A stretch of DNA of 58,322 nt from Candidatus Kuenenia stuttgartensis. Lineage in GTDB: Bacteria > Planctomycetota > Planctomycetia > Pirellulales > UBA1268. Below, piece after piece: positions 16,429 through 55,295 of the stretch. How positions within the stretch are numbered: position 1 is the stretch's first letter; each line of letters opens with the position of its first letter. A program made the position numbers and the translations under genes. The stretch is from assembly GCA_945877135.1 (NCBI GenBank), contig CAMCQY010000006.1:1-58322 (forward strand), written 5' to 3'. Under the pieces are notes generated by a model. It worked only from the letters and a program-made list of their open reading frames with translations. It was not told the DNA's origin and searched no databases.

Positions 16429-17787
16429 ATGAACCAGCACGCTCGTCAGACCGCGACGGCAGTCTCCCGCCGCACGTTCGCCGTCGGCGCCGCCACCGCC
16501 ACGGCGGCTGCGGCCGTTGGCACCGGATTCTTCGCCTCCCACGGCTACGGTGAGCCGCCGGCAGAAGGACCCGCCGACATGCTCAACATCGCCGTCGTCG
16601 GCCTCGGCGGCCAGGGGGCCGCGAATCTCGGTGGCGTGAAGAGCCAGAACATCGTGGCGGTCTGCGACGTCGATGATGTGCGGGCCGGCAAGGCCTACGA
16701 GCAGCATCCTGGAGCCACGAAGTTCACCGACTTCCGCAAGATGTTCGACGCGCTGGACAAGCAGATCGACGCGGTCGTGATCAGCACGCCCGACCACACG
16801 CACTTTCATCCTGCCTGGTGGGCGATGGAACGGGGCAAGCATGTCTACCTGGAGAAGCCGCTTGCCCACGAGGTGGAGGAGGTGCGACGACTGACGGAGG
16901 CTGCCCGCAAGAAAGGCCTCGCCACGCAGCTCGGGTCGCAGCGGCATGCGGTGAAGGGCCTGCGCGACGGCGTCGAGATCGTGAAATCGGGCCTGCTCGG
17001 CACGATCAAAGAGGTGCACTCCTGGATCGCCAGCGGCCGCGGGATGCCCACCATGCCGGACATCGCGGGTGAGCCACAGCCGGTGCCCGCCGGACTCGAC
17101 TGGGATCTCTGGCTTGGACCGGTGGCCGAGCGTCCCTACACGAAGGGCTTCGCGCCCTACGACTGGCGATTCTGGTGGGAGTTTGGCACCGGCGAGACCG
17201 GCAACTGGGGCTGCCATATCCTCGACATTCCGTTCTGGTCTCTCGACCTCGCGCATCCGGTGCATGTCAGTGGGAGCGGGCCGGAGCCCGACCCCAAGCG
17301 GACGCCAAAATCGCTCGCCAGCCGGCTCGACTTTCCGGCACGCACGGGGGCGAACGGAAAGGCATGGCCGGCGGTGAGCGTGCACTGGTACCAGGGACGG
17401 CCGCCGGTGCTCGAGGAACGAGGCATCGACGGCAAGCTCGCGGAAAAGAAGAACACGCTCTTCATCGGCACCGATGGGATGCTGCTCTGCGGGTTCGATG
17501 CCTGGTCGCTCCTGCCCGCCGAGAAGTTCGCCGGCTACGAGGGCCCCAAGCAGACGATCCCGAAGTCGCCGGGCTTTCATCGCGAGTGGCTCGACGCCTG
17601 TCGCGGGGGGGGCCCAGCAACGTGCAACTTCGACTACACGGGGCCGCTATCGGAGAGCGTGCTGCTGGCCAACATCGCCTACCGGGTGCAGGGGGAGTTT
17701 GACTGGGATGCGGCCGCCATGAAGAGCAGCCGCGACGACGTCAACGCCATGCTCCGCCGGCAGTATCGCCGCGGCTGGGAAGTCTGA
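16429..17787 (+). CDS. Tat-exported Gfo/Idh/MocA NAD(P)-dependent oxidoreductase
   Basis: SRRTF; VGLGGQG; STPDHTH; YLEKPL; LDWDLWLGP. Confidence 0.92.
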   Translation: MNQHARQTATAVSRRTFAVGAATATAAAAVGTGFFASHGYGEPPAEGPADMLNIAVVGLGGQGAANLGGVKSQNIVAVCDVDDVRAGKAYEQHPGATKFTDFRKMFDALDKQIDAVVISTPDHTHFHPAWWAMERGKHVYLEKPLAHEVEEVRRLTEAARKKGLATQLGSQRHAVKGLRDGVEIVKSGLLGTIKEVHSWIASGRGMPTMPDIAGEPQPVPAGLDWDLWLGPVAERPYTKGFAPYDWRFWWEFGTGETGNWGCHILDIPFWSLDLAHPVHVSGSGPEPDPKRTPKSLASRLDFPARTGANGKAWPAVSVHWYQGRPPVLEERGIDGKLAEKKNTLFIGTDGMLLCGFDAWSLLPAEKFAGYEGPKQTIPKSPGFHREWLDACRGGGPATCNFDYTGPLSESVLLANIAYRVQGEFDWDAAAMKSSRDDVNAMLRRQYRRGWEV

Positions 17788-17974
17788 GCGGTTTTCGTCG
17801 TTCTCTCGTAACCAGTTCTCGGGGAGAGTCTCCGATGACTGCTGTTTCACGTGTCGTCTTCGGGATGCAGAAGCGGGATAACGCCGCCGGCACGTCAGAC
17901 TGGCCCAACCGGGCGCTCGACTGGCTGGCTCCGTGGCCGCGGGCTGTAGGGGCGCGTGGTGTGGCATCGGCTTC

Positions 17975-18105
17975 GGGGCTGCTCACGCCCCGTCGCCGGA
18001 CGTTCGCTACGGGCATCCTGCCCTTCGCTCACTCGATGCTGACTGCGCTCCGGCATCCTGCCTCCGCTGGTCAGCAACGCCGGCTCTCGAGGCATGAGCA
18101 GCCCC
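17975..18105 (-). ncRNA. 131-nt structured intergenic element, copy 1 (two GGA-loop hairpins; candidate CsrA-binding RNA module or MITE-like repeat)
   Basis: Nested stems with compensatory changes relative to copy 2; minus-strand hairpins GGGCAGGAUGCCC and GGCAGGAUGCC. The RNA function is inferred. Confidence 0.55.
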
Positions 18106-18151
18106 TCGCGGACTCCTCGATCGGGTGCGCGAGACGTATCGAGATGTTGCT

Positions 18152-19648
18152 TCAGCGGATCTTTTGGTCGGGCAGGGCTGACTTGATGCCCTCGTCGAGC
18201 GGCATTGTGTCTTTTTCCGGCGTGAGTCCGAAGGACGTCAGCAACTCTGCAAGCCGCCGCTCGAGATCCGCCCGCGTCGCTGCATGGGCCGGATCGACGG
18301 CCAGATTGTCTCGTTCATCGGGGTCGGCCGCGAGGTCATACATCTCCGGCAGATGGCGGTCGGCCGTGCCGTCGCCATGCGGATAGTGAACAAACTTGAA
18401 TCGGTCGCTGCGGATGCCGCGGATGTTGGGCGTGTAGGGAAACTGCTTCTCGTAGTTGTATTCGTAGAGCCAGGCGGTGCGCCAGTCAGGATCGCCCTGA
18501 TTGCACAATCCCTTCCACGACCGGCCGTGCGTCTTCGAGATCGGCGGCGCCCTGCAGAGGTCGAGCACGCTCGGGGCGATGTCTTCCGTGAGCACCTGCT
18601 GCTCCACGACCTTCCCGGCGGGCAGCCCCGGACCGCGGGCGATGATCGGAATCCGGATGCTCGGCTCGTGCATCGTCCGCTTGTCGACCATGCCATGCTC
18701 ACCTTCGAGCAGGCCATTGTCGCCCATGAAGATGATGAGCGTGTTTTCCAACTCGCCACGCGACTCGAGCAGCTGCACCAGCCGGCCCACGCTGTCGTCG
18801 ACGCTGAGGACCGTGCCCCAGTAGGCGTGCACCATGTTTTCAAAGTCTTTCACGGCTTCGGGCCGCGTGTCGGGGAATTGCTTCCGCCATTCGAAGAGCG
18901 GGCCATAGATTCCGTGCCAGGTGGGGAGCCGCTGCCGGATCCAGTCGGGCTGGCCGTCGAGGTGGAAGGCGGTCTGTGGATAGGGCACGCGGACATCGTC
19001 GAACGCATGCTTGTATTGCTCCTCGGGAAAATAGAAGGAGTGCGGCGCCTTGTGACCGAGGCAGAGGGCCCAGGGTTTCCCGGCCGGCTGCTTCGCAACC
19101 CAATCGGCGGCGTAGTCTGTAACGACCGTGGTGTAGTAGCCCTTGGGCGTTTCGCGGCGGTCGCCGTTGACGTTCCACTCGGTGTCGAAGTATTTGCCCT
19201 GGCCCTTGTGGCTCACGAACCAGTCGAATCCGGGGCGGGGGGCGTCGTTGTCCTCGCCCATATGCCACTTGCCGATGTATCCCGTCGAGTAGCCCTGCTC
19301 GCGCAGCCGGCCGGGCCACTGGGGCAGGGCGGGGGGAAGTTCGGTGAAGTTGTTGCGGACCCCGTGGGCGTGGGCGTAGAGACCGGTGAGAATGCTTGCG
19401 CGGCTGGGTGAGCAGAGCGACGTCGTGCAGAAGCCGTTCATGAACCGCACGCCACCGGCGGCGAGGCGGTCGATATGGGGCGTCTTCACGTGCTTCGAGC
19501 CGTAGCAGCCCAGGGCATCGGGCCGCAGATCGTCGCAGAGGATGAAGAGGACGTTCGGCCGCGTCGCGGACTCGGCGGCGAACAGGGACAAGCCCCCGAG
19601 GCACACGACCAGCGTGGCTACGAGGATGGGAAGACAGGTGCTTTTCAT
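18152..19648 (-). CDS. Secreted Cys-type (formylglycine) sulfatase
   Basis: PNVLFILCDD, LCSPSRASILTG, GKWH and GDNG motifs. Confidence 0.93.
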   Translation of the reverse strand: MKSTCLPILVATLVVCLGGLSLFAAESATRPNVLFILCDDLRPDALGCYGSKHVKTPHIDRLAAGGVRFMNGFCTTSLCSPSRASILTGLYAHAHGVRNNFTELPPALPQWPGRLREQGYSTGYIGKWHMGEDNDAPRPGFDWFVSHKGQGKYFDTEWNVNGDRRETPKGYYTTVVTDYAADWVAKQPAGKPWALCLGHKAPHSFYFPEEQYKHAFDDVRVPYPQTAFHLDGQPDWIRQRLPTWHGIYGPLFEWRKQFPDTRPEAVKDFENMVHAYWGTVLSVDDSVGRLVQLLESRGELENTLIIFMGDNGLLEGEHGMVDKRTMHEPSIRIPIIARGPGLPAGKVVEQQVLTEDIAPSVLDLCRAPPISKTHGRSWKGLCNQGDPDWRTAWLYEYNYEKQFPYTPNIRGIRSDRFKFVHYPHGDGTADRHLPEMYDLAADPDERDNLAVDPAHAATRADLERRLAELLTSFGLTPEKDTMPLDEGIKSALPDQKIR

Positions 19649-19725
19649 GAGAGAAAGTCTACCGAGGTGAAGCTATCATGCACACCGTGCGAGTCGCGGT
19701 TCGTCATTTCGCCAAAGGTCGTTGC

Positions 19726-22602
19726 ATGAGCATGAGGCTGCTTTGTTTCGGGGCCGTATTGATGGGGCTCGGGTGGGCGTGCAGCGGCATGGCTGCCACG
19801 CCAATCGTGCCCGGCTTCGAACGGTTTGGCCGGTCGGCGAGCGATCCCGCGGCAGCCATCGACAGCGGGCTTGTGCTGCTCGGTGAACTTGGCTGCGTGA
19901 ATTGCCACGCCGCCGGTAAGGAGCAGGCCGCGCACCTGATGCCCAAGCGGGGGCCAAACCTCGACAAGGTCGGCGAACGGATCGGGCCCGAGTGGCTCGT
20001 CGAGTATCTCAAGCAGCCCAACGCAGTGAAGCCGGGCACCACGATGCCGCATGTCCTCGCCGGCCTGTCCGACACCGAACGCGATCGGACCGCCACTGCG
20101 ATCGCCCATTTTCTGGCCGCAACGGGTGCCTTCGACGATGGTTCGCTGCCGGAGTCGGGCACGGCGAATGCCGCGGAAGGGCTGAAGATCTACGAACGGG
20201 CCGGCTGTGCCGTCTGCCATGGCTCCCGCACGAAAGATGCGGTGCCGCTGCCCGACCAGATGCCGCTGGTCGATCTCGACAAGAAATGGTCGCCGCGCGC
20301 GCTCGATGAATTCCTCAAAAACCCGTTCCACATCCGCCCGTCCAGCCGGATGCCGGCCCTGCCGCTCAAAGACAACGAGCGACGGCACGTCGTCGCCAGC
20401 CTGCTCGGGTCGCCGCCGCCTCCCCGCGACACTCATCGAGACCATGTCGCCTTCAACGGCCGTGCGTGGCTCGTGAACGTGGAGAAACTGCCGGCGATCG
20501 AAACACTCGGTTCGCCGGCGAAGACGGGGCCGGTGAAGGGCTTCGAAGTCGTGCAGTTGGCGGGACGGCCCGATGGCTTCGTCGTGCAACTGGACGGTTT
20601 CCTCCACGCCCCCTCCGCCGGAACCTACCAATTTCACCTGTCGAGCGACGACGGCAGCCGGCTGCTCATTGGCGACCGGCAGATCGTGGAGAATGACGGC
20701 ATTCATGCCGACACAGAACGCCACGGAGAGATCTCGCTCGAAGCCGGGGTCCACCCCATCCGGATCGAGTACTTCGAGGCCAGCGGCGGTGAGACGCTCA
20801 ACCTCGACGTGACGCCGCCACGCCGACCGCGGCGGTCGGCGCTCGAATACGTGACCCCGACCGCTGCCGACAAGCCGCTGGCATCGATGGCCGTCGCGGC
20901 TACGCAAGCATCGTTCGCAGTCGACCCAGCGCTTGTGGAAGAGGGCCGGGCGGCATTTGCCGCCGTGGGCTGCGCCAGTTGCCACGAACTGAAAGGCTCC
21001 GATGGCAAGCGGATCGAGCCGGCTGCCACGCCGAGGCCGCTCATGAAACTCGTGTCGCTCGATGCCGGATGCCTTGCCAAGGCCGCGCGGCAGGGAACTC
21101 CGCACTATCCACTCGACGACGTCCAGCGGTCGGCCGTCACTTCGGCTCTTGGCTGGCTCAGATCGCCGGCGGCGGAATCTGCGCCTGCTCGCGAGCAGAC
21201 CATCGACCGCATGCTCACGGCCCTCAACTGCTACGCCTGCCACAACCGCGATGGCCGGGGTGGAATCATCCCGGCTGTCACCACCACGGACGACGACGGC
21301 GAGCCGATCCTGAAGGACCCGGTTCGCGACGCCCTGTTCACCAGTGCCGTGCAGGAGCTTGGCGACGAGGGCCGTCTGCCTCCCACGCTCACCGGCGTCG
21401 GTGACAAACTTGCGAGTGGGTTTCTTCGCGAGGTGCTTGCCGAAGGGGGCAAGGATCGCGGCGCGTACATGCACACGCTCATGCCGAAGTGGCATCCGAA
21501 TGTCGTCGATCCGCTCGCGAAGCAGCTTGCAGAAGACGTGAAGACCACCGTGTCCACGCCCGAACTCTCGGGCCACTCGGAATCGGAGATCGATGAACAG
21601 GCCCGCGGCCTGGTCGGCTCCAAGTCGCTCGGCTGTATCAAGTGTCATTCGTTCGCCGGGGAGAAGGGGCAGAGCCTCGGCGTGATCGACATGACGAGGA
21701 TGCCCAAGCGGCTGCGGCATGACTGGTTTCTGGCCTACGTGGCCAATCCGCAGCAGTTTCGGCCCGGCACCCGGATGCCGGCCAGTTGGCCGGAAGGCAA
21801 AACGTTCTATCCCGGCGTCCTCGACGGCACGGCCGCAGGGCAGATCGAGGCGGTCTGGCGGTATCTCGCCGGCACGAAGCCGCGTCCACCCGTAGGCTCC
21901 GGCACGAATCCGATCGAACTTGTGCCGGTCGATCGGCCGATCATCTATCGCAACTTCATCGAGGGTGCGGGTCCCCGGGCGATCGGTGTCGGGTATCCCG
22001 AAAAAGTAAACCTGGCCTGGGACGCCGACCGGCTGCGATTGGCCCTCGTCTGGCGGGGCGCGTTCATCGATGCCGGAAAGCATTGGACCGGCCGCGGGCA
22101 GGGCTTCCAGACGCCGTTGGGCGATGGCGTGTTCTCCCCTGACGCTGCCTCGGCCATCGCCGTGCTGGCCAGCCTGGAGTCACCCTGGCCGATGGCGAAG
22201 CCGGATCAGCCGGCGGGGGAACGGCGCGACGGACCGCGGTTTCGCGGCTACTCGCTCGACGTGCAGGGGCGGCCTACCTTCAACTGGTCGATCGATGGCA
22301 TGCGAATCGGCGAGAAGATCGAGCCGATCGTTGAAGGCGGGAAACAGGTCGTCCGCCGTACGATTCAGGTGGCCGGTCGGCCCGCCGCGGGCGAGGCGTT
22401 TTTCCGTGTGGCGTTGGCGAGGAAGGTCGAAGACAAGGGCGACGGCTGGCTGCTGATCGACGGCACATGGCGTGTGCGGGTGAGCGGCGCGGGCGTCGCA
22501 CCGGCGGTGAACCGCAGCGACGATGGCACGACGGAGATCCGCCGAAGAATTGTGTGGAGCCCAGGCGATGAGGCCGAATTCGTGGAGGAGTTGTCATGGT
22601 GA
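19726..22602 (+). CDS. Secreted pentaheme cytochrome c with a PA14 domain
   Basis: Five CxxCH motifs (CVNCH, CAVCH, CASCH, CYACH, CIKCH); PA14 signature SDDGSRL...NDGIH...GVHPIRIEYFE; start trimmed to MSMRLL. Confidence 0.88.
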   Translation: MSMRLLCFGAVLMGLGWACSGMAATPIVPGFERFGRSASDPAAAIDSGLVLLGELGCVNCHAAGKEQAAHLMPKRGPNLDKVGERIGPEWLVEYLKQPNAVKPGTTMPHVLAGLSDTERDRTATAIAHFLAATGAFDDGSLPESGTANAAEGLKIYERAGCAVCHGSRTKDAVPLPDQMPLVDLDKKWSPRALDEFLKNPFHIRPSSRMPALPLKDNERRHVVASLLGSPPPPRDTHRDHVAFNGRAWLVNVEKLPAIETLGSPAKTGPVKGFEVVQLAGRPDGFVVQLDGFLHAPSAGTYQFHLSSDDGSRLLIGDRQIVENDGIHADTERHGEISLEAGVHPIRIEYFEASGGETLNLDVTPPRRPRRSALEYVTPTAADKPLASMAVAATQASFAVDPALVEEGRAAFAAVGCASCHELKGSDGKRIEPAATPRPLMKLVSLDAGCLAKAARQGTPHYPLDDVQRSAVTSALGWLRSPAAESAPAREQTIDRMLTALNCYACHNRDGRGGIIPAVTTTDDDGEPILKDPVRDALFTSAVQELGDEGRLPPTLTGVGDKLASGFLREVLAEGGKDRGAYMHTLMPKWHPNVVDPLAKQLAEDVKTTVSTPELSGHSESEIDEQARGLVGSKSLGCIKCHSFAGEKGQSLGVIDMTRMPKRLRHDWFLAYVANPQQFRPGTRMPASWPEGKTFYPGVLDGTAAGQIEAVWRYLAGTKPRPPVGSGTNPIELVPVDRPIIYRNFIEGAGPRAIGVGYPEKVNLAWDADRLRLALVWRGAFIDAGKHWTGRGQGFQTPLGDGVFSPDAASAIAVLASLESPWPMAKPDQPAGERRDGPRFRGYSLDVQGRPTFNWSIDGMRIGEKIEPIVEGGKQVVRRTIQVAGRPAAGEAFFRVALARKVEDKGDGWLLIDGTWRVRVSGAGVAPAVNRSDDGTTEIRRRIVWSPGDEAEFVEELSW

Positions 22603-25305: not shown

Positions 25306-26472
25306 TCAGCCGGTGCCGATTCGCAGATCGTGATCGCGGTCGAGGAAGCGGTCGGTCATGCCGGCGATGTAGTCGGCGACGCTCCGCCGCACGCCAAATT
25401 GCTCGGCACGGCCGCGAAAGCCGGGCGGCATCTCATCGGGGTGCAGGCAATACCACTCGAACAGTCGTGTCAGTTTCCGCTGCGCCGGCACCCGAACCGC
25501 CAGCACCCGTTCACTGCGGTAGACCCGTTGGAAGAGAAACTGCTCGAGGGCACGTTTGCTGGCGGCGACGGCCGGCGTGTGGGCCACGATTCGCACGCCC
25601 GGCAGACTCCCTTGGCCGCGGAATACATCCCGGACCTGCGCCACCGATTCAATCCCCAGGGCCGCGATAGCGGCCCGACTCCGCGTCACCAGTTCCGCCA
25701 CCTCGAATTCCACCACCTCGTGGAGCGCCGCCCGCCGCAGTTCCGGGCCCTCGAGCGAACCGTAGCGGTCGCGGGCGCGACTGGCGGCATCGGCCATGAG
25801 GGGAATTTCGAGGAGTTCATCCATGGTGACGAGCCCCAGTTCGACGGCATCGTCGGCGTCGTGCGTGTCGTAGGCGATCGAGTCGGCGGCATCGACGACC
25901 TGAGCCTCGAGCAGCGGTTCCGGTGCCGTGCCATCCTTCTTCCGCGTGGCCTGGGCATCGAGGACCTCTCGGGAGAGGTTCAGGCCGGGGAAGTGTGGGT
26001 AGCGGATCTCCAGGAGTTCCACGATGCGGAGCGCCTGCGCGTTGTGGTTGAAGCCGCCTTCGTCCGCGAGCAGTTCGGAGAGCGTGTCCTCGCCGGCATG
26101 GCCCAGCGGCGGATGGCCGATGTCGTGGGCCAAGGCCAGCGTCTCGACCAGATCTTCGTTGATGGCCAGGCTGCGGGCGAGGGTGCGGGCGATGCTCGTC
26201 ACCTCCAGCGTGTGCGTCAGGCGGCTCCGGTGATAGTCGCCGTGGTAGCCGGTGAAGACCTGTGTCTTGTGGGCGAGGCGGCGGAAGGCGGCCGAGTGGA
26301 CGATGCGGTCGCGGTCGCGTTGGTAGGGGCTGCGGAAGGCGTGCGGAGGCTCGTCGTGCACCCTGCCAGCCGAGTCGGCCGCGTGCATCGCCCAGGGGGC
26401 AAGCAGGAGCGATTCCCGCTGCTGCCAGTCGGGTGCTCCGGCAGATTCCTCGTCATGGCGGCGTGCTGTCAT
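25306..26472 (-). CDS. dgt: dGTP triphosphohydrolase (HD family)
   Basis: QRDRDRIVHSAAFRRLAHKTQVF, RLTHTLEV, AHDIGHPP and DYIAGMTD. Confidence 0.93.
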   Translation of the reverse strand: MTARRHDEESAGAPDWQQRESLLLAPWAMHAADSAGRVHDEPPHAFRSPYQRDRDRIVHSAAFRRLAHKTQVFTGYHGDYHRSRLTHTLEVTSIARTLARSLAINEDLVETLALAHDIGHPPLGHAGEDTLSELLADEGGFNHNAQALRIVELLEIRYPHFPGLNLSREVLDAQATRKKDGTAPEPLLEAQVVDAADSIAYDTHDADDAVELGLVTMDELLEIPLMADAASRARDRYGSLEGPELRRAALHEVVEFEVAELVTRSRAAIAALGIESVAQVRDVFRGQGSLPGVRIVAHTPAVAASKRALEQFLFQRVYRSERVLAVRVPAQRKLTRLFEWYCLHPDEMPPGFRGRAEQFGVRRSVADYIAGMTDRFLDRDHDLRIGTG

Positions 26473-27050
26473 CGGCGCGATCCGTCGGTGTGGTGATCGG
26501 AATGATGGGATCCTGCGGCGGCCTGCACGAGTTGCTCGCGCAGCGCGTCGAGCGACTGCGGCAACACCCGCACGCCCGCCGTCGTTGGCATGAAGTTCAC
26601 GTCACCCGGCCACCGTGGCACGATGTGCCAGTGGAGGTGGCCGGGCAGCCCCGCGCCGGCGACCGCCCCGAGGTTCAGACCCACGTTGAAGCCGTAGGCC
26701 TGCATCGACCGCTCCATGACGCCGCACCAGGTCACGATGCAGGTCTGCAGATCGAGGAGCTGCTCTGCTGACAGATCGGCAAGCGCGGCCCGGTGGTCGA
26801 GCGGGGCGACAAGCAGGTGGCCGTTGGAGTAGGGGAAGCGGTTGGTCACGACCACGCTCAGAGGCGTGCGGGCGACCACGCCCAGGGCCGCGTCGTGCGC
26901 TGCGTCGGCCGCGGCCGCACGGCAGAGGAAGCACTGGTGGACGGCGCCGTCGCGCCAGTGGGCTGGCTCAACCTTTTCAAAGGGCGCGCCCTTGTCGTGC
27001 CCCTGCACGTATCCCAGCCGCCAGGGTGCCCAGAGGGTTTCGTTGCTCAT
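26469..27050 (-). CDS. HIT family hydrolase (Ap4A phosphorylase/FHIT-like)
   Basis: LWAPWR, CFLC, NRFPYSNGH and HLHWHIVPRW; start trimmed to MSNE. Confidence 0.92.
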   Translation of the reverse strand: MSNETLWAPWRLGYVQGHDKGAPFEKVEPAHWRDGAVHQCFLCRAAAADAAHDAALGVVARTPLSVVVTNRFPYSNGHLLVAPLDHRAALADLSAEQLLDLQTCIVTWCGVMERSMQAYGFNVGLNLGAVAGAGLPGHLHWHIVPRWPGDVNFMPTTAGVRVLPQSLDALREQLVQAAAGSHHSDHHTDGSRR

Positions 27051-27114
27051 GAGGGTATCGTACCCGAACGCGACCTCCTGGCCGCAACCCAGAGCTGAAA
27101 GCTGGCCGCGGTTC

Positions 27115-27246
27115 GGGGCTGCCCATGCGCCGTCGCCGGACGTTCGCTCCGGCCATCCATGGCCTTCGCTCACTCGATGTTGACTGCGCTTCGCCATCCT
27201 GGCTGCGCTTGTCAACAACGCCGGCTCTCGGCACATGGGCAGCCCC
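27115..27246 (-). ncRNA. 132-nt structured intergenic element, copy 2
   Basis: Colinear with 17975-18105; minus-strand hairpins GGCCAUGGAUGGCC and GCCAGGAUGGC. Confidence 0.55.
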
Positions 27247-27358
27247 TCACGGATGCTTCCGGTTCCATCGACGCTAGGCCTGGATGGCCGGTTCAGCACC
27301 AGCGGGCGGAGGCCCGCCAAGCGAAAACGACACGATGTCGTGTTTCGCGTGAAGCGGT

Positions 27359-28552
27359 CTACAACACTTCGGCCCAGAGCGCGTCTGAGACGAGCAGGCC
27401 TTCTCGCGTGAGTTGCACGCGCTCGCCGTCGTCGGTGGCGAGGCCGCGGTCGGTCCAACGGCGAATGGAACTGCCGGCGACGAGGTCGAGGTCGAGGCCA
27501 CTGGCGGCAAGAAAGTTCGCGCGGCTGAGGCCATCGCGCCGCCGAAGCCCGAGCACGACCCGCTCCTGAGCGGCCTCCAGTGGCGTCATCGCGTCGCGAT
27601 CGCCAGTGAAGTCTTCGCCGGCGAGCACGCGCCGCATCCAGGTTGTCGTGCTGCGGTGATTCGTGATCCGCAGCCGACCGTCAAACCGTGCGGCGCCCGG
27701 CCCGAACGCCTCCCATGGCCGGCAATCCCAGTAGGTCTCGTTGTGACGACAACGGCCGCCCGGTCGGGCGAAGTTGGAAACTTCGTAGTGCTCGAAGCCC
27801 GCCGCCTCAAGCCGGTCGATCGTCCGGTCGAGCATCGCCCGCTCGAGCGACTCGGCAGCGGGCTGGAGTGTGCCACGACGCCGCTGCGACTCGAACAACG
27901 TGCCCTTCTCCCAGGTCAGACAGTAGACGGAGAGATGCTGCGTGCCGAGCGCCACGATCGCGTCGAGATCCCGTTCGACATCAGCGAGCGTCTGGCCCGG
28001 TGCCGCTGTCATCAGGTCAACGCTCACGGTGAATCCACGGTCGAGCAGGATGCCGACCGCCCGCCGAACATCGTCGGGGGTGTGGTCACGGTCGAGTGCC
28101 GCGAGCGTCGTCGTGTCGAGCGACTGGGCGCCGAGGCTGACGCGGGTCGTGCCGCAGGCCGCGGCCGCGGCCGCCAGTGGTTCCGTCACATCCTGAGGAT
28201 TGGCCTCGATCGTGACTTCGGCACCCGGCAGCGGCCGCAGCCGAGCGTGAAGGATGTCGAAGAGCCGTGCGAGTCCGTCCGGCCCGAGGTGCGACGGCGT
28301 GCCGCCGCCAAGATAAAGCGTGGCCAACTCCAGGCACGCATCGCCCAGGCCCAGATCTGGCACTGCGTCGAGCCGTGTCAGCTCCCGCTGGATGGCCGCG
28401 AGGTAGTCGGCGATGAGATCGTCGCGGCCCGCGATCAGCGCAAAATCACAGTAGCCGCAGCGGTGGCGGCAGAAGGGCACGTGCACGTAGGCGGCACGCG
28501 GGAGGGGGGGCGTTTCCCCGGCGTTCGTGATGTCGGCCGTCAGGGTCTTCAC
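27359..28552 (-). CDS. hemW: Radical SAM heme chaperone HemW (HemN-like)
   Basis: [28 protein letters not shown] and HNETYW. Confidence 0.88.
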
Positions 28553-44930: not shown

Positions 44931-44944
44931 TGCGCCTGCTGGTT

Positions 44945-45189
44945 TCATCCAAGCCCGCAGCGCAAGCAAGGGAAAGTGGGTGGCCATTCAGGCTGGGACG
45001 CGGATTCCTCTCGCTTGCGCTTCGGGCTTGCATGGGAATGGCGCGTTCAACCAAGCCCGCAGCGCAAGCAAGGGAAAGTTGGTGGCCATTCAGGCTGGGA
45101 CGCGGATTCCTCTCGCTTGCGCTTCGGGCTTGCATGGGAATGGCGTGTTCAACCAAGCCCGCGGCGCACGCAAGGGAAAACGGGTGGCC
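44945..45189. repeat. BIME-like array: about 2.4 x 102-bp units of inverted REP-like palindromes (family B)
   Basis: CCAAGCCCGCAGCGCAAGCAAGGG-type units start at 44949, 45051 and 45153, alternating with CCTCTCGCTTGCGCTTCGGGCTTG. Confidence 0.85.
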
Positions 45190-51488: not shown

Positions 51489-54400
51489 ATGGCCACGGCT
51501 TCCCAACCACCCTCCGAGCCGCTCGCCGTCAGCACGTGGGCAGACGACGGCCAGCCTGACTCCAAATCGGAGCGCTACCTGGCCCGGCGGCTGGCCGCGG
51601 CCAGTGCCGACTACAAGGGTGTCGCTCTCATCACGTTCTTGCTCGGAGCCGGCGTAGCCACGCTCGTCTGGGTAGCATGCGGCGTGGTGCTCGAACATTG
51701 GCTCGTGCCCGGCGGCCTCCCCCGTTGGGCGCGGTGGACGTGGCTCCTGACGGGGCTCGCGGCGATCGTGGCGGCGGGCGTCCGGTGGATTCTGCCGCTG
51801 ATGCGGTATCGCGTGAATCTTGTCTACGCGGCGCGGGTGATCGAGAAAGAACACCCTGAACTCCACAACGATCTCGTCAACACCGTGCTCGTCAAGGCGC
51901 ATCCGGAGGGCAATGCGGCCACGGTTGTGAAGTCGCTCGAGCGGCGGGCCGCCAAGCGGCTCTCGTCGGTGCCGGCGGAGTCGGTCATCGATCGGTCTCT
52001 GGCGGTGGGGCTGGCGTATGCGTTGGCTGCGCTCGTGGGGCTGGCCTGCGTCTACTCCCTGGTGGCGCCGAAGAGTCTGCTGACGACCACGGCCCGGCTG
52101 CTCGCGCCGTGGGCCCGCGTTGCCGCGCCGACGCGGGTGAGGCTCGAGCCACCGCGGCTGCGATGGCGCATGCCCGGCGAGGACGCAGCCCCACTCGGGC
52201 CCGGCGTTGGCGCGGACGCGGCGACTGCCGATGGCAACGATCCGCACGATTCCAGAAACATCAAGGTCGAAGCGGGCGGTGCCACGCTGGTACGGGGTCG
52301 GCAACTTGTGGTGACGACCGCGATCCACGGCTTGCGGCGCGACGAGCGACCGATCGTCACCGTGACGCCGGTGCTCGACAGCGGTGCCGTCGATGGGGCG
52401 GCCGTGCCATGGCGGGCGGATATGACACGGGTCGGCGGCGAGACTGGCACCGGGCAACGCTATGCCGCCGTGCTGCCCGACGCGGCGCGTGGACTCGATC
52501 AGTCAGTGACGTTCACAATCCAGGCGGGCGATGCGCGGAGCGAGCCGATCCGGGTGGCGATGGTCGATTCGCCAACGCTGATGGTGCGTGAGGTGCGGTA
52601 CGAGTTTCCGGCCTACATGCGGCGCGAGAGTGAGACGGTGGCTTGGCAGGGCGACCTGCGCGGTGTGGAAGGCACGCGTGTCGTGATCGTGGCGGAGAGC
52701 AATCAGCCGCTGGAATCGGCCTGGATCGATTTCGATTGCGACGGCAGTCGCGATCTCAAGCTCAAGGTCGGCGCGAGCGATCTGGCCCGGGCCACCGGCT
52801 CGTTCGTACTGCAGATGAATCCGGAACGCACGTCAGCCGAGCATGGGGCATACCGATTGCTCCTCCAGCCTCGCGGCACGGCCCTCGCCGATCGAGGGCA
52901 GGTGCAGGCCGAGAAGCTCGAACACCGGATTGAGGTGCAGGCAGACCTGGCACCCGAGATCTCGATCGAGGAGCCGCTGGAATCGCCGGCCCGTGTGCCG
53001 CCTGGGGCGCCGGTGACGGTGCGTGTGCGGGCGCTCGACCCCGACTTTGGCCTGGCCCGCGTCGGCCTCGAGACCCGGGTGAAGGGTGGGGCGGCACAGC
53101 CGGAGATCGTGCTGCCGGGCAGTGAGCGGAGTGGCGCATTCAACGGCAGTCTGCAACTCGTGCCAGAGCGGCTCGGGGCGGGGGGAGGAAGCACGCTCGA
53201 ATACCGTGGCGTGGCCGTGGATACGCGGCCCAGCCAGCCGAACGTGACGCATACGCCTTGGAAGCTGCTGCAGATCGATGCCTCAGCACCGCCGAGGCAG
53301 CCGGAAAAGGCGCCGCCGCGGTCGGGTGAGCAGAAGAAGCAGGGGGATGAAGAGCAGGAAAATGGCGAAGGCGAGTCTGGCAAGGCTTCTGACGATAGCC
53401 GCGGTGCATCGGGCGAGAACGGCGGGCAGGGATCATCGGATGGCCGCGAAGGCGGCAGGCAGGAAAAGGATCAGGGAAAGCAAGGAGAAGAAGGACCGCA
53501 ACAACAAGGACCGCAACAACAAGGACCGCAGGGAGAGCAGCGGGAGCAAGGCGGCCAGCAGCAGAAGCCGAAGGATGGCAAGGAATCGGGTGGAGCGCAG
53601 CAGCGCCAGCCGCAACAGGGCCAGCCACAACAGAACAGCGGCCAGCAGGGTGAAGCCCAGCCGGGGCAACAGGGCGGCGCCGCCAGTGGCAGTCAGCAGG
53701 GCGGCAAGCAGCCTCAGGCGGGAGAGAACAAGCAGCAGGGCTCCTCGCAGGGGCAGAGTGGAGAAGCCGGCGGAGCTGACGGCCCGGGAACTGGCCGCGG
53801 CACTGAGGGAAAGGGCGGCACAGGCGCACAGTCGGACGGCAAGCAGTCCGATGGAGAGAGCGGTGCGGGCGGCCAACAGGGGGGCAGGCAAAACGCTGCG
53901 CAAGACTCAGCGCAGCGGCCAGGCGGTGCGAAGTCAGGCAGTGATGCCGGAGGGGCCGGCGGTGCAGACGGCTCATCCCAAGGGAAGCAGACCGGCGACC
54001 AGCGCGGAATGGGCAACCAAAAAGGTGGGAGTCAAAAAGGCGGGAGTCAGCAGCCCCGCCCTGCGGTGGCTGCCGATGGGACCAATGACGGCGAGGCAAT
54101 GGAGAGGATTCTCGATCACCGCCGGCAGGCCGGCGACAACTCGTCCGATGGAATGAAGGCGGGGAAGACAAAGCCTGACGGCGACGGTGCAGGTGAAAGC
54201 GGCCGCGGAAGCGACGGCAAAGCCGGTGAAAACTCGTCGAACGAGGGGAAGTCTGCCGGCCAAAACCCAGCGAACAAGCCGGGTGAGGGCAACCCTCGTG
54301 ATGGCGCTTCGGCTGATGGTGAGTCGCAGCCGGGAGCGGGTGGCGAGAAGAGTGGCAAGAGCCAGGGAGACAAGGGTCAACAGGGACAGGGTCAACAGGG

Positions 54401-55295
54401 ACAGGGTCAACAGGGACAGGGTCAGCAGGGACAGGGTCAGCAGGGACAGGGTCAGCAGGGACAGGGTCAGCAGGGACAGGGTCAGCAGGGACAGGGTCAG
54501 CAGGGACAGGGTCAGCAGGGACAGGGTCAACAGGGACAGGGTCAGCAGGGACAGGGTCAACAGGGACAGGGTCAACAGGGACAGGGTCAGCAGGGACAGG
54601 GCGATGCGGCCGGCCCGAATGCAGAGGAGAGCGGTTCGAAAAAAAGCGGGAATCCGGCGACTGGTCCGGCGGGTGAGGGAGCAGCGCAGCCGCAGGGTGA
54701 CCCTCAGCAAGAGGGTGAAGCTGGTGGTAAGCCGAGCGGCCAGCCAGCGGCGGGGCCACCGCCTGAGGGAGCGAGCCAGTCGAGCCCGGTGGGTGGTGGC
54801 GGATGGTCGGAAGGAGCAGGGACACCGACGGGTGGAGCAGCCGCTCAGGGACCACCGCCTTCTCGCGAAACGGAATGGGGTTCACAGGAGCTTGAGAACG
54901 CCCGCAACGCGGCCGACCTCGCCCTCGAACACCTGCGCACCACGGTCGATTCGGGTCGAACCGATGTGCTCGACGAACTTGGCTGGACTCGCGACCAGGC
55001 GCGTGCGTTTCTCGACCGCTGGGAATCGATGCGGCGGCAGTCGGAAAGCCCCGATCTCCAGAAACGCGGGGAGTTTGAGCGGGTGCTCCGCAGCCTCGGC
55101 CTCCGGCCCGCTGGCGTGCAGAGTTCCCGCGAAGTTCCCGCCGACGCGAAGGGCGGCCAGGCGGAGGGCCGCCGCAGTCGGCCCCCGAGCGACTACCGCG
55201 AACGGTTCAAGGCGTTCCTTCAGGGGACGAGTGGCGAACAGGACGGCGGTTCCAGACAAGATGACCGTTCCAAGCCGGGCAATGGTGGCGAATAA
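51489..55295 (+). CDS. Large membrane-anchored protein with beta-rich domains and a Gly/Gln-rich disordered tail (DUF4175-like architecture)
   Basis: N-terminal TM helices, HPELHNDLVN, YEFPAYM, long G/Q/S/E region and C-terminal PPSDYRERFKAF. Confidence 0.8.
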   Translation: MATASQPPSEPLAVSTWADDGQPDSKSERYLARRLAAASADYKGVALITFLLGAGVATLVWVACGVVLEHWLVPGGLPRWARWTWLLTGLAAIVAAGVRWILPLMRYRVNLVYAARVIEKEHPELHNDLVNTVLVKAHPEGNAATVVKSLERRAAKRLSSVPAESVIDRSLAVGLAYALAALVGLACVYSLVAPKSLLTTTARLLAPWARVAAPTRVRLEPPRLRWRMPGEDAAPLGPGVGADAATADGNDPHDSRNIKVEAGGATLVRGRQLVVTTAIHGLRRDERPIVTVTPVLDSGAVDGAAVPWRADMTRVGGETGTGQRYAAVLPDAARGLDQSVTFTIQAGDARSEPIRVAMVDSPTLMVREVRYEFPAYMRRESETVAWQGDLRGVEGTRVVIVAESNQPLESAWIDFDCDGSRDLKLKVGASDLARATGSFVLQMNPERTSAEHGAYRLLLQPRGTALADRGQVQAEKLEHRIEVQADLAPEISIEEPLESPARVPPGAPVTVRVRALDPDFGLARVGLETRVKGGAAQPEIVLPGSERSGAFNGSLQLVPERLGAGGGSTLEYRGVAVDTRPSQPNVTHTPWKLLQIDASAPPRQPEKAPPRSGEQKKQGDEEQENGEGESGKASDDSRGASGENGGQGSSDGREGGRQEKDQGKQGEEGPQQQGPQQQGPQGEQREQGGQQQKPKDGKESGGAQQRQPQQGQPQQNSGQQGEAQPGQQGGAASGSQQGGKQPQAGENKQQGSSQGQSGEAGGADGPGTGRGTEGKGGTGAQSDGKQSDGESGAGGQQGGRQNAAQDSAQRPGGAKSGSDAGGAGGADGSSQGKQTGDQRGMGNQKGGSQKGGSQQPRPAVAADGTNDGEAMERILDHRRQAGDNSSDGMKAGKTKPDGDGAGESGRGSDGKAGENSSNEGKSAGQNPANKPGEGNPRDGASADGESQPGAGGEKSGKSQGDKGQQGQGQQGQGQQGQGQQGQGQQGQGQQGQGQQGQGQQGQGQQGQGQQGQGQQGQGQQGQGQQGQGQQGQGQQGQGDAAGPNAEESGSKKSGNPATGPAGEGAAQPQGDPQQEGEAGGKPSGQPAAGPPPEGASQSSPVGGGGWSEGAGTPTGGAAAQGPPPSRETEWGSQELENARNAADLALEHLRTTVDSGRTDVLDELGWTRDQARAFLDRWESMRRQSESPDLQKRGEFERVLRSLGLRPAGVQSSREVPADAKGGQAEGRRSRPPSDYRERFKAFLQGTSGEQDGGSRQDDRSKPGNGGE
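54375..54599 (+). repeat. 15 x 15-bp tandem repeat encoding (GQQGQ)15
   Basis: GGTCA(A/G)CAGGGACAG repeated 15 times. Confidence 0.95.

Follow-up and report, generated by a model that had tools for sequence, protein, structure and literature searches.

The stretch of 58,322 nucleotides (nt) analysed here, hereafter the window, is contig CAMCQY010000006.1 (positions 1 to 58,322) of assembly GCA_945877135.1, which GTDB places in the planctomycete order Pirellulales. It carries two copies of a structured intergenic repeat that we call element A. Copy 1 lies between the convergent genes for a GFO/IDH/MocA oxidoreductase and a sulfatase-family protein, and copy 2 lies between two minus-strand genes, for a radical-SAM/HemN-like and a HIT-domain protein (Table 1). 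Here, we describe using homology searches, covariance models, folding and variant counts how this element is built, where it occurs and on which strand its fold is kept, and we weigh how such a repeat could have come to be dispersed through the genome and its relatives.

The two copies are near-alike, with a mean column identity of 88% over 172 aligned columns including flanks, and a repeat finder aligns them as two ungapped pieces at 86% and 89% identity. They share one fold plan: an 18-pair basal stem, followed by an invariant GCCGG/CCGGC stem and then by two arms, each of which ends in a hairpin of 4-5 pairs closing on GGA, in the window copies on the minus strand. Both loops read CAGGAU in copy 1, and AUGGAU and CAGGAU in copy 2; the distance from GGA to GGA is 40 nt in copy 1 and 41 nt in copy 2. 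Folded as RNA, the minus strand of copy 1 reaches -87.5 kcal/mol (z = -6.7, with none of 200 shuffles as good), as compared with -75.1 kcal/mol for the plus strand (z = -4.6) and -39.5 for the plus strand folded as DNA (z = -3.5).

The original prediction, made by reading the two copies against each other, described these stems and the compensatory changes in them, and all are present. The outer stem exchanges T:A for C:G, GCCGG/CCGGC is unchanged between the copies, and TGCTGAC/GTCAGCA in copy 1 is TGTTGAC/GTCAACA in copy 2. Likewise, GGC-ATCCT-GCC becomes GCC-ATCCT-GGC and GGGC-ATCCT-GCCC becomes GGCC-ATCCAT-GGCC, and the minus-strand loops read CAGGAUG or CAUGGAUG with their GGA triplets about 40 nt apart in both copies. 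Three details need adjustment. The element had been put at about 131 nt; it exists, but the conserved unit is somewhat longer, as listed in Table 1. Each outer stem had been given a single C.A mismatch that turns into G.U on the minus strand; the conversion to G.U is correct, but copy 1 has two plus-strand C.A mismatches, not one. Finally, a minus-strand gene does end upstream of both window copies, as had been pointed out, but this is not a property of the family.

Table 1. Coordinates of element A, its parts and the surrounding features in the window.
Feature	Position	Strand	Details
Element A, copy 1	17968..18112	minus (structured strand)	blastn, nhmmer and covariance-model matches; folds
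Copy 1, outer stem arm	17975..17992	minus	forms 18 pairs with 18088-18105, including two that are G.U on the minus strand
Copy 1, outer stem, second arm	18088..18105	minus	sequence reading, fold, helix counts
Copy 1, invariant inner stem, GCCGG arm	17995..17999	minus	paired to 18080-18084 (helix 2)
Copy 1, hairpin GGGCA-GGA-UGCCC	18011..18023	minus	plus-strand TCC at 18016-18018
Copy 1, arm from stem TGCTGAC/GTCAGCA	18037..18076	minus	encloses the GGA hairpin at 18052-18062 (helix 3)
Copy 1, hairpin GGCA-GGA-UGCC	18052..18062	minus	plus-strand TCC at 18056-18058
Element A, copy 2	27111..27253	minus	covariance-model and nhmmer matches; sub-threshold full-length RF01731 match, 21.4 bits
Copy 2, hairpin with loop CAUGGAUG	27151..27164	minus	sequence reading, RF01731 alignment
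Copy 2, hairpin with loop CAGGAUG	27193..27203	minus	sequence reading, RF01731 alignment
Family C copy	27280..27353	plus	three hairpins whose loops are of GGA or CGA type; A and T runs border the last one; nhmmer
GFO/IDH/MocA oxidoreductase gene	16429..17787	plus	convergent with the sulfatase gene; ends 184 nt from copy 1
Sulfatase-family gene	18152..19648	minus	ends 39 nt from copy 1
HIT-domain gene	26469..27050	minus	starts about 60 nt past copy 2, with an uncertain start codon
Radical-SAM/HemN-like gene	27359..28552	minus	ends 105 nt from copy 2

The two copies belong to a large family. The genome of the window (3.92 Mb in 240 contigs, 65.5% G+C, from an assembly that is 93.8% complete) yields 106 blastn pieces and 99 nhmmer matches of element A, 82 of which cover at least 120 of the 143 model positions. 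None of these 82 near-full-length copies falls inside a called gene, so that all lie between genes, and contig ends hold many copies. By DNA search, 18 of the 19 other species of the genus have the element, as do three of five other genera of the family, and none of 16 other families does. A covariance model built from 30 diverse copies finds it in eight of nine other genomes of the same family and gives no match in 131 genomes that represent 29 further families of the order. A 19-base core occurs in records titled as metagenome-assembled genomes of uncultured freshwater Planctomycetota or Pirellulales, a few of whose labels are probably the result of mis-binning. Element A is thus lineage-specific, being found in one family of uncultured freshwater Pirellulales.

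Thirty copies from several species and genera were aligned for the analysis of covariation. Their RNAalifold consensus has 43 pairs, of which 21 show double changes, compared with 10.9 +/- 1.7 in shuffled alignments and 4-8 in slid controls; 97.7% of the cells are paired versus 86.9% in the shuffles, and none of 500 shuffles matches the real alignment on any of five measures. The outer stem (helix 1) is paired at 99.1%, and seven of the nine pairs of helix 3 carry double changes. The covarying fold, far beyond what chance would give, is strongly supported. The loops are conserved as well: GGA is found in 30/30 copies in the hairpin corresponding to 18052-18062 of copy 1, and in 28/30 in the one corresponding to 18011-18023, the remaining two having CGA. 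The flanks of the triplet vary (CAGGAUG, CAUGGAUG, CCGGAGG, CUGGAGG), and so do the stems beneath. Within the genome of the window, at least two GGA hairpins are kept in 72/82 copies, and of the 70 copies in which two of these motifs could be located, 58 have them 39-41 nt apart. That the element is dispersed and covarying, and that its GGA loops persist in further copies, had been anticipated from the two copies alone; the family of 99 matches, the double-change stems and the loops kept while stems covary across genera bear this out.

Which strand carries the fold had also been predicted correctly. As RNA, 80 of the 82 copies fold more stably on the GGA strand (mean -89.6 versus -81.8 kcal/mol). 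Among deviations from Watson-Crick consensus pairs, 110 are compensated and 35 are other, and the one-sided stem changes comprise 111 G.U pairs on the GGA strand versus 13 on the other strand, an excess that is spread across some twenty pairs. Mutation bias was considered as a source of this asymmetry and is ruled out by the unpaired sites, where the per-site rates of G>A and T>C (0.022 and 0.023) are set against those of C>T and A>G (0.031 and 0.033) with no excess that matches the bias. The G.U variants on the GGA strand are nearly all shared, 100 by at least two copies with 4 singletons, compared with 7 shared and 6 singleton on the other strand and 19 shared and 13 singleton for other mismatches; private mutations show no structural constraint (4 vs 6). 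Because the bias resides in shared variants, private mutations are unconstrained and unpaired sites are unbiased, selection would act when element A propagates; from the shared versus private variants we infer that the fold is selected on one strand, presumably at the propagation step.

How are the copies oriented with respect to the genes around them? By our first gene calls, the flanking genes are convergent at 31 copies and divergent at nine, both lie on the GGA strand at 18 and both on the other strand at 14, and one flank is missing at ten; stricter calls give 32 convergent, 7 divergent, 18 GGA-sense and 12 other-sense copies. An excess of convergent and a deficit of divergent neighbours is usual for intergenic repeats. 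The strand placed for read-through is the GGA strand in 49 copies and the other strand in 45. The original prediction took the GGA strand to be the transcribed one and named random orientation relative to transcription as the observation that would speak against it; the orientation is about even, at 18 versus 14. Better upkeep of the GGA-sense copies was considered and is ruled out, since model scores are the same for both co-directional classes (p = 0.29) and the GGA hairpins are equally intact, in 17/18 and 14/14 copies. Orientation has a weak link to local GC skew (Mann-Whitney p = 0.005, with copies on the same contig not being independent), and the three doublets of element A within 2 kb are all divergent.

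Turnover at orthologous sites is considerable. Downstream of the sulfatase gene, element A has the same orientation as copy 1 in one relative and is inverted in two; of the remaining relatives, one retains about 45 nt only, another carries different repeats in its place and a third lacks it. Nine relatives have both anchors of the copy 2 site: the copy is shared by three of them, is missing from five, and in one occurs inverted at another place in the spacer. Four DNA contig sets give very high summed depth over both window copies and no clean excision joint at either of them, and one DNA contig joins opposite strands across copy 1 (17926 to 18106), in agreement with the inverted copies of the relatives. 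At the copy 2 site, relatives G015 and G017 (loci L231 and L243) have another, palindromic repeat of about 190 nt with G+C-rich ends, which points to at least one further repeat family in the genus.

Element A also has regular neighbours. Other repeat modules adjoin, with fixed polarity, the end that is 5' on the GGA strand. One of them is family C (75-100 nt), which has 83 nhmmer matches in the genome; in 22 of 28 adjacencies it is found at this end and in a single orientation, the usual arrangement being the one seen at copy 2. A family C copy consists of two small GGA-type hairpins around a conserved spacer, followed by a longer hairpin that is bordered by A and T runs and resembles a bidirectional terminator. 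The loops of the family are of GGA, CGA or UGCG type, and some copies have an insert whose hairpin shows a TCC loop on the same strand. In the usual adjacency, the GGA loops of family C are on the strand opposite to those of element A; between co-directional genes, the family C GGA strand is antisense in 16 copies and sense in 7. Strand asymmetry of the kind found in element A was not seen in family C, as the GGA strand is more stable in 37/57 copies and more G.U pairs are on the other strand. A further motif stands 9-13 nt from the same end of element A in 15/81 copies, or within 80 nt of it in 18, and is absent from the opposite side throughout.

Other small repeat modules border element A, for example in its right flanks on contigs C82, C23 and C52 of G000 and at the copy 1 site of relative G012. 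One is the motif C-C/T-A-T-N-N-AAGC with a short hairpin after it, sometimes in tandem arrays of about 22 nt, and another is a near-identical, G+C-rich and terminator-like hairpin with a T run on the other strand. Elsewhere in the window there are three tandem arrays, with a 42-nt period across about 420 nt (290-709), two 102-nt units of 97% identity (44944-45147) and a 15-nt period across about 330 nt (54313-54646). At 19645-22602, two long open frames of 812 aa (minus) and 974 aa (plus) overlap on opposite strands, and the gene caller took the plus frame.

We consider it probable, at roughly two in three, that element A is a non-autonomous, mobile-like and highly structured intergenic repeat of about 145 nt that is selected as a single strand during its propagation. 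The lineages that multiply would be the ones in which the GGA strand, when single, has stayed foldable, and the propagating strand could be DNA, as in tyrosine/HUH transposase systems, or a transcript. Copies would drift after insertion, and any influence on adjacent genes, whether through 3' stem-loops of mRNAs with the element in either orientation or through CsrA-type sites if the GGA strand is transcribed, would then be a by-product. Several observations weigh against this proposal. No transposase could be tied to element A. The genome of the window has only one Y1 transposase gene, truncated at a contig edge, and has no TnpB and no IS110-type gene over the cut-off. RAYT-like Y1 genes, of the type associated with repetitive extragenic palindromes (REPs), are present in 13 of 19 relatives of the genus, yet neither element A nor family C stands beside the Y1 genes at any of 12 loci, within about 1.5 kb on each side where the contig allows. 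The RAYT-like gene of locus L188 in relative G017 instead has, on either side, an inverted pair of a 24-nt A+T-rich REP (1120-1201 and 1915-2000). The layout is that of a textbook REPIN-RAYT locus and has no relation to element A, and the core motif of this REP has no copy in the genome of the window. Orthologous spacers at the two loci are too rearranged to define exact ends and give no clean filled/empty pair, so the exact mobile unit and its movement are what we infer. The argument from shared and private variants draws on few singletons (23), and gene conversion or recurrent change could also be a source of shared variants. The gene calls are home-made, from codon log-odds, so that orientation counts may be off by a few. 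Finally, a benefit to the host fits the persistence of the element across a whole bacterial family, and conserved GGA on the structured strand is the expectation for a CsrA-binding RNA and is unpredicted by purely selfish DNA.

Two more specific forms of mobility can be weighed against these data. A classical MITE (a miniature transposable element with inverted repeats), that is, an internally deleted insertion sequence whose terminal inverted repeats are recognised by a DDE transposase, would account for the 18-nt inverted terminal arms, the size of about 145 nt, the high copy number and the intergenic location. However, no target-site duplication was found in 43 complete copies (k = 2-8, offsets -8 to +8, against shuffled pairings), which argues against a DDE-type MITE and fits tyrosine/HUH-type or similar mechanisms that act on a folded single strand. 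Tyrosine (HUH) transposase systems also leave no target-site duplication. Moreover, the internal stems covary and are strand-biased, which recognition of terminal repeats does not require, and the sequence just outside the arms is asymmetric in most copies, so that we regard a MITE as highly improbable. A MITE would also have a parent insertion sequence with the same ends; draft assemblies usually miss insertion sequences. It is possible, though doubtful, that element A is a REP/REPIN-type element moved by a RAYT, or an IS200/IS605 derivative, with the enzyme recognising the folded single-stranded DNA of the GGA strand. The missing target-site duplication, the hairpins selected on one strand at propagation, the exclusively intergenic location with its convergent excess and divergent deficit, the persistence across a family and the weak link to GC skew, with its non-independent copies, would all be as expected, and one of the RAYT-like proteins among the relatives matches NCBIfam REP_Tyr_transpos at 69.8 bits, under the cut-off of 80. 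Against it stand the 12 Y1 loci, which also have no systematically placed GGA hairpins, and the one RAYT locus examined for flanking repeats, L188, with its different REP pair. About 80 copies share a genome with a truncated Y1 gene and no TnpB, although in an assembly of this completeness the gene may be missing. The unit itself is a 145-nt multi-hairpin structure, whereas REPs are described as palindromes of 20-40 bp in the portion of the account that we draw on (PMC3733652).

Selection of the fold could alternatively come from CsrA, as the original prediction proposed: element A would be an RNA module or sponge that offers a CsrA dimer a pair of GGA hairpins spaced by about 40 nt, so that either neighbouring mRNAs come under CsrA control or CsrA is titrated, and the spread of the element distributes the sites. 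We regard this as unlikely to be what shaped the element, while CsrA binding by GGA-strand transcripts is in itself plausible. Much of the structure agrees with the proposal, namely the near-invariant GGA in loops whose flanks and stems change, the coincidence of structured strand and GGA strand, the retention of at least two GGA hairpins in most copies and the regular spacing. A distance of 39-41 nt is within the range bridged by a CsrA dimer. GGA and TCC are the commonest cores of intergenic hairpin loops (238 and 227, or 2.6- and 2.3-fold per base over coding sequence, with the other 18 listed cores at most 1.0-fold), and by our estimate most of these intergenic hairpins come from element A and family C. 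The nearest Rfam family, TwoAYGGAY, has loops that have been proposed as Csr/Rsm sites and sponges. The protein is also available, as had been assumed, with six csrA matches over the Pfam cut-off in this genome. However, csrA-domain genes have 2-13 matches over that cut-off in all 41 genomes sampled across the order, and csrA is present in all 16 genomes from families without element A. We considered csrA copy number as a correlate of the element and rejected it on these counts. Because csrA is multi-copy with and without element A, its presence is needed for the CsrA idea but is uninformative about it. Orientation and turnover disfavour a locus-by-locus CsrA control of neighbouring mRNAs. The claim that the element adds such control is unsupported as a selected function, given the even orientation and read-through placement, the inversions at orthologous sites, the equal scores and equally intact hairpins in both orientations, the unconstrained private mutations and the csrA counts. 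In addition, CGA replaces GGA in some loops, and in some copies a terminator-like module separates the element from the gene that lies upstream of it on the GGA strand. A scan for sigma-70-like promoters and terminators, which does not cover planctomycete promoter types, found neither at copy 1, and its sole match at copy 2 is the neighbouring family C hairpin (27327-27341, minus). To our knowledge, no Csr small RNA has been described in Planctomycetes. The titles of papers on Planctomycetes and CsrA contain nothing on Csr small RNAs, a literature search found no paper that brings together CsrA, GGA and REPs, and the titles and opening abstract lines of papers on CsrA in Planctomycetes and on intergenic repeats or MITEs in Planctomycetes give no account of element A.

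Dispersed structured repeats are common in bacteria, and as a class element A is not new. What element A offers is selection for a one-strand fold at propagation that is visible from sequence alone, which is a testable signature of multiplication. If its loops bind CsrA, mobile DNA would be linked to global post-transcriptional control; even if they do not, element A is an unannotated repeat family that is missed by Rfam and breaks the assemblies of abundant lake bacteria.

Among known repeats, ERIC/IRU (enterobacterial repetitive intergenic consensus, or intergenic repeat unit) and Correia-type elements are intergenic, about 100-150 nt long, form long hairpins in both orientations and can be co-transcribed with neighbouring genes. 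They show either duplication of the target or a defined target and are not known to carry conserved GGA loops, whereas element A is without target duplication and has a marked single-strand bias. REP/REPIN-RAYT systems resemble element A in being intergenic, high-copy, palindromic and long-persisting, with strand-specific hairpins and no target duplication, and RAYT-like genes exist in the genus. In contrast to them, element A measures 145 nt with at least five helices, and the RAYT genes checked lack it, one having its own unrelated REPIN. REPs also carry a GTAG or CGTC tag at one end, and REP families of Planctomycetes are mentioned in the part of that account drawn on above (PMC3733652). 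With CsrB, RsmY and RsmZ, element A shares GGA in hairpin loops, with CAGGAUG commonest, and at least two sites per molecule. CAGGAUG is the repeated motif of CsrB. Unlike these RNAs, which are encoded by one or a few dedicated genes, element A has about 80 dispersed copies, and no Rfam match to them.

The closest likeness is to TwoAYGGAY (RF01731). The window has no Rfam match at gathering thresholds, and in a permissive search this is the only similar family, on the GGA strand. Copy 2 aligns to the whole 168-position model at 21.4 bits, compared with a gathering score of 43, and one of its hairpins equals the consensus GCCAUGGAUGGC exactly; copy 1 has no match at E <= 10. Four copies over the genome score 20-22.5 bits (best 22.5), and 18 loci from several genera gave no match at E <= 1. 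By Rfam score element A is not a TwoAYGGAY member, and the likeness may stem from homology or from convergence. In the available portion of a recent account, TwoAYGGAY is intergenic in Pseudomonas and occurs in multiple copies (medians of 11-23 and as many as 202 per genome), with repeats at fixed positions around it and mostly divergent doublets, and it probably expands like a mobile element (10.64898/2026.09.22.753630). The same portion proposes its loops as Csr/Rsm sites and possible sponges, states the link between mobility and regulation as unresolved, and names Pseudomonadota and Bacillota as hosts with no mention of Planctomycetes (10.64898/2026.09.22.753630). As in TwoAYGGAY, the basal stem of element A encloses two hairpins with GGA-centred terminal loops, and its copies, about 80 in number, have polar, fixed-register neighbours and divergent doublets (3/3). 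In contrast, most of its loops are CAGGAU rather than AYGGAY, so that AYGGAY does not stand in both loops, one hairpin is nested at the tip of an extra covarying stem, and the host is a planctomycete.

Could element A be the planctomycete counterpart of TwoAYGGAY, by descent or convergence, that is, a self-propagating RNA-level module whose propagating strand also displays two CsrA-type GGA hairpins? We offer this as a speculative and rather improbable reading. If it were true, copy number would set a pool of CsrA decoys, of about 160 hairpins plus those of family C, in organisms with 4-6 CsrA paralogues, and mobility and Csr-type regulation would be mechanistically linked. The propagation signature together with GGA loops kept across genera is a TwoAYGGAY-like combination, here in a distant phylum with many CsrA paralogues.

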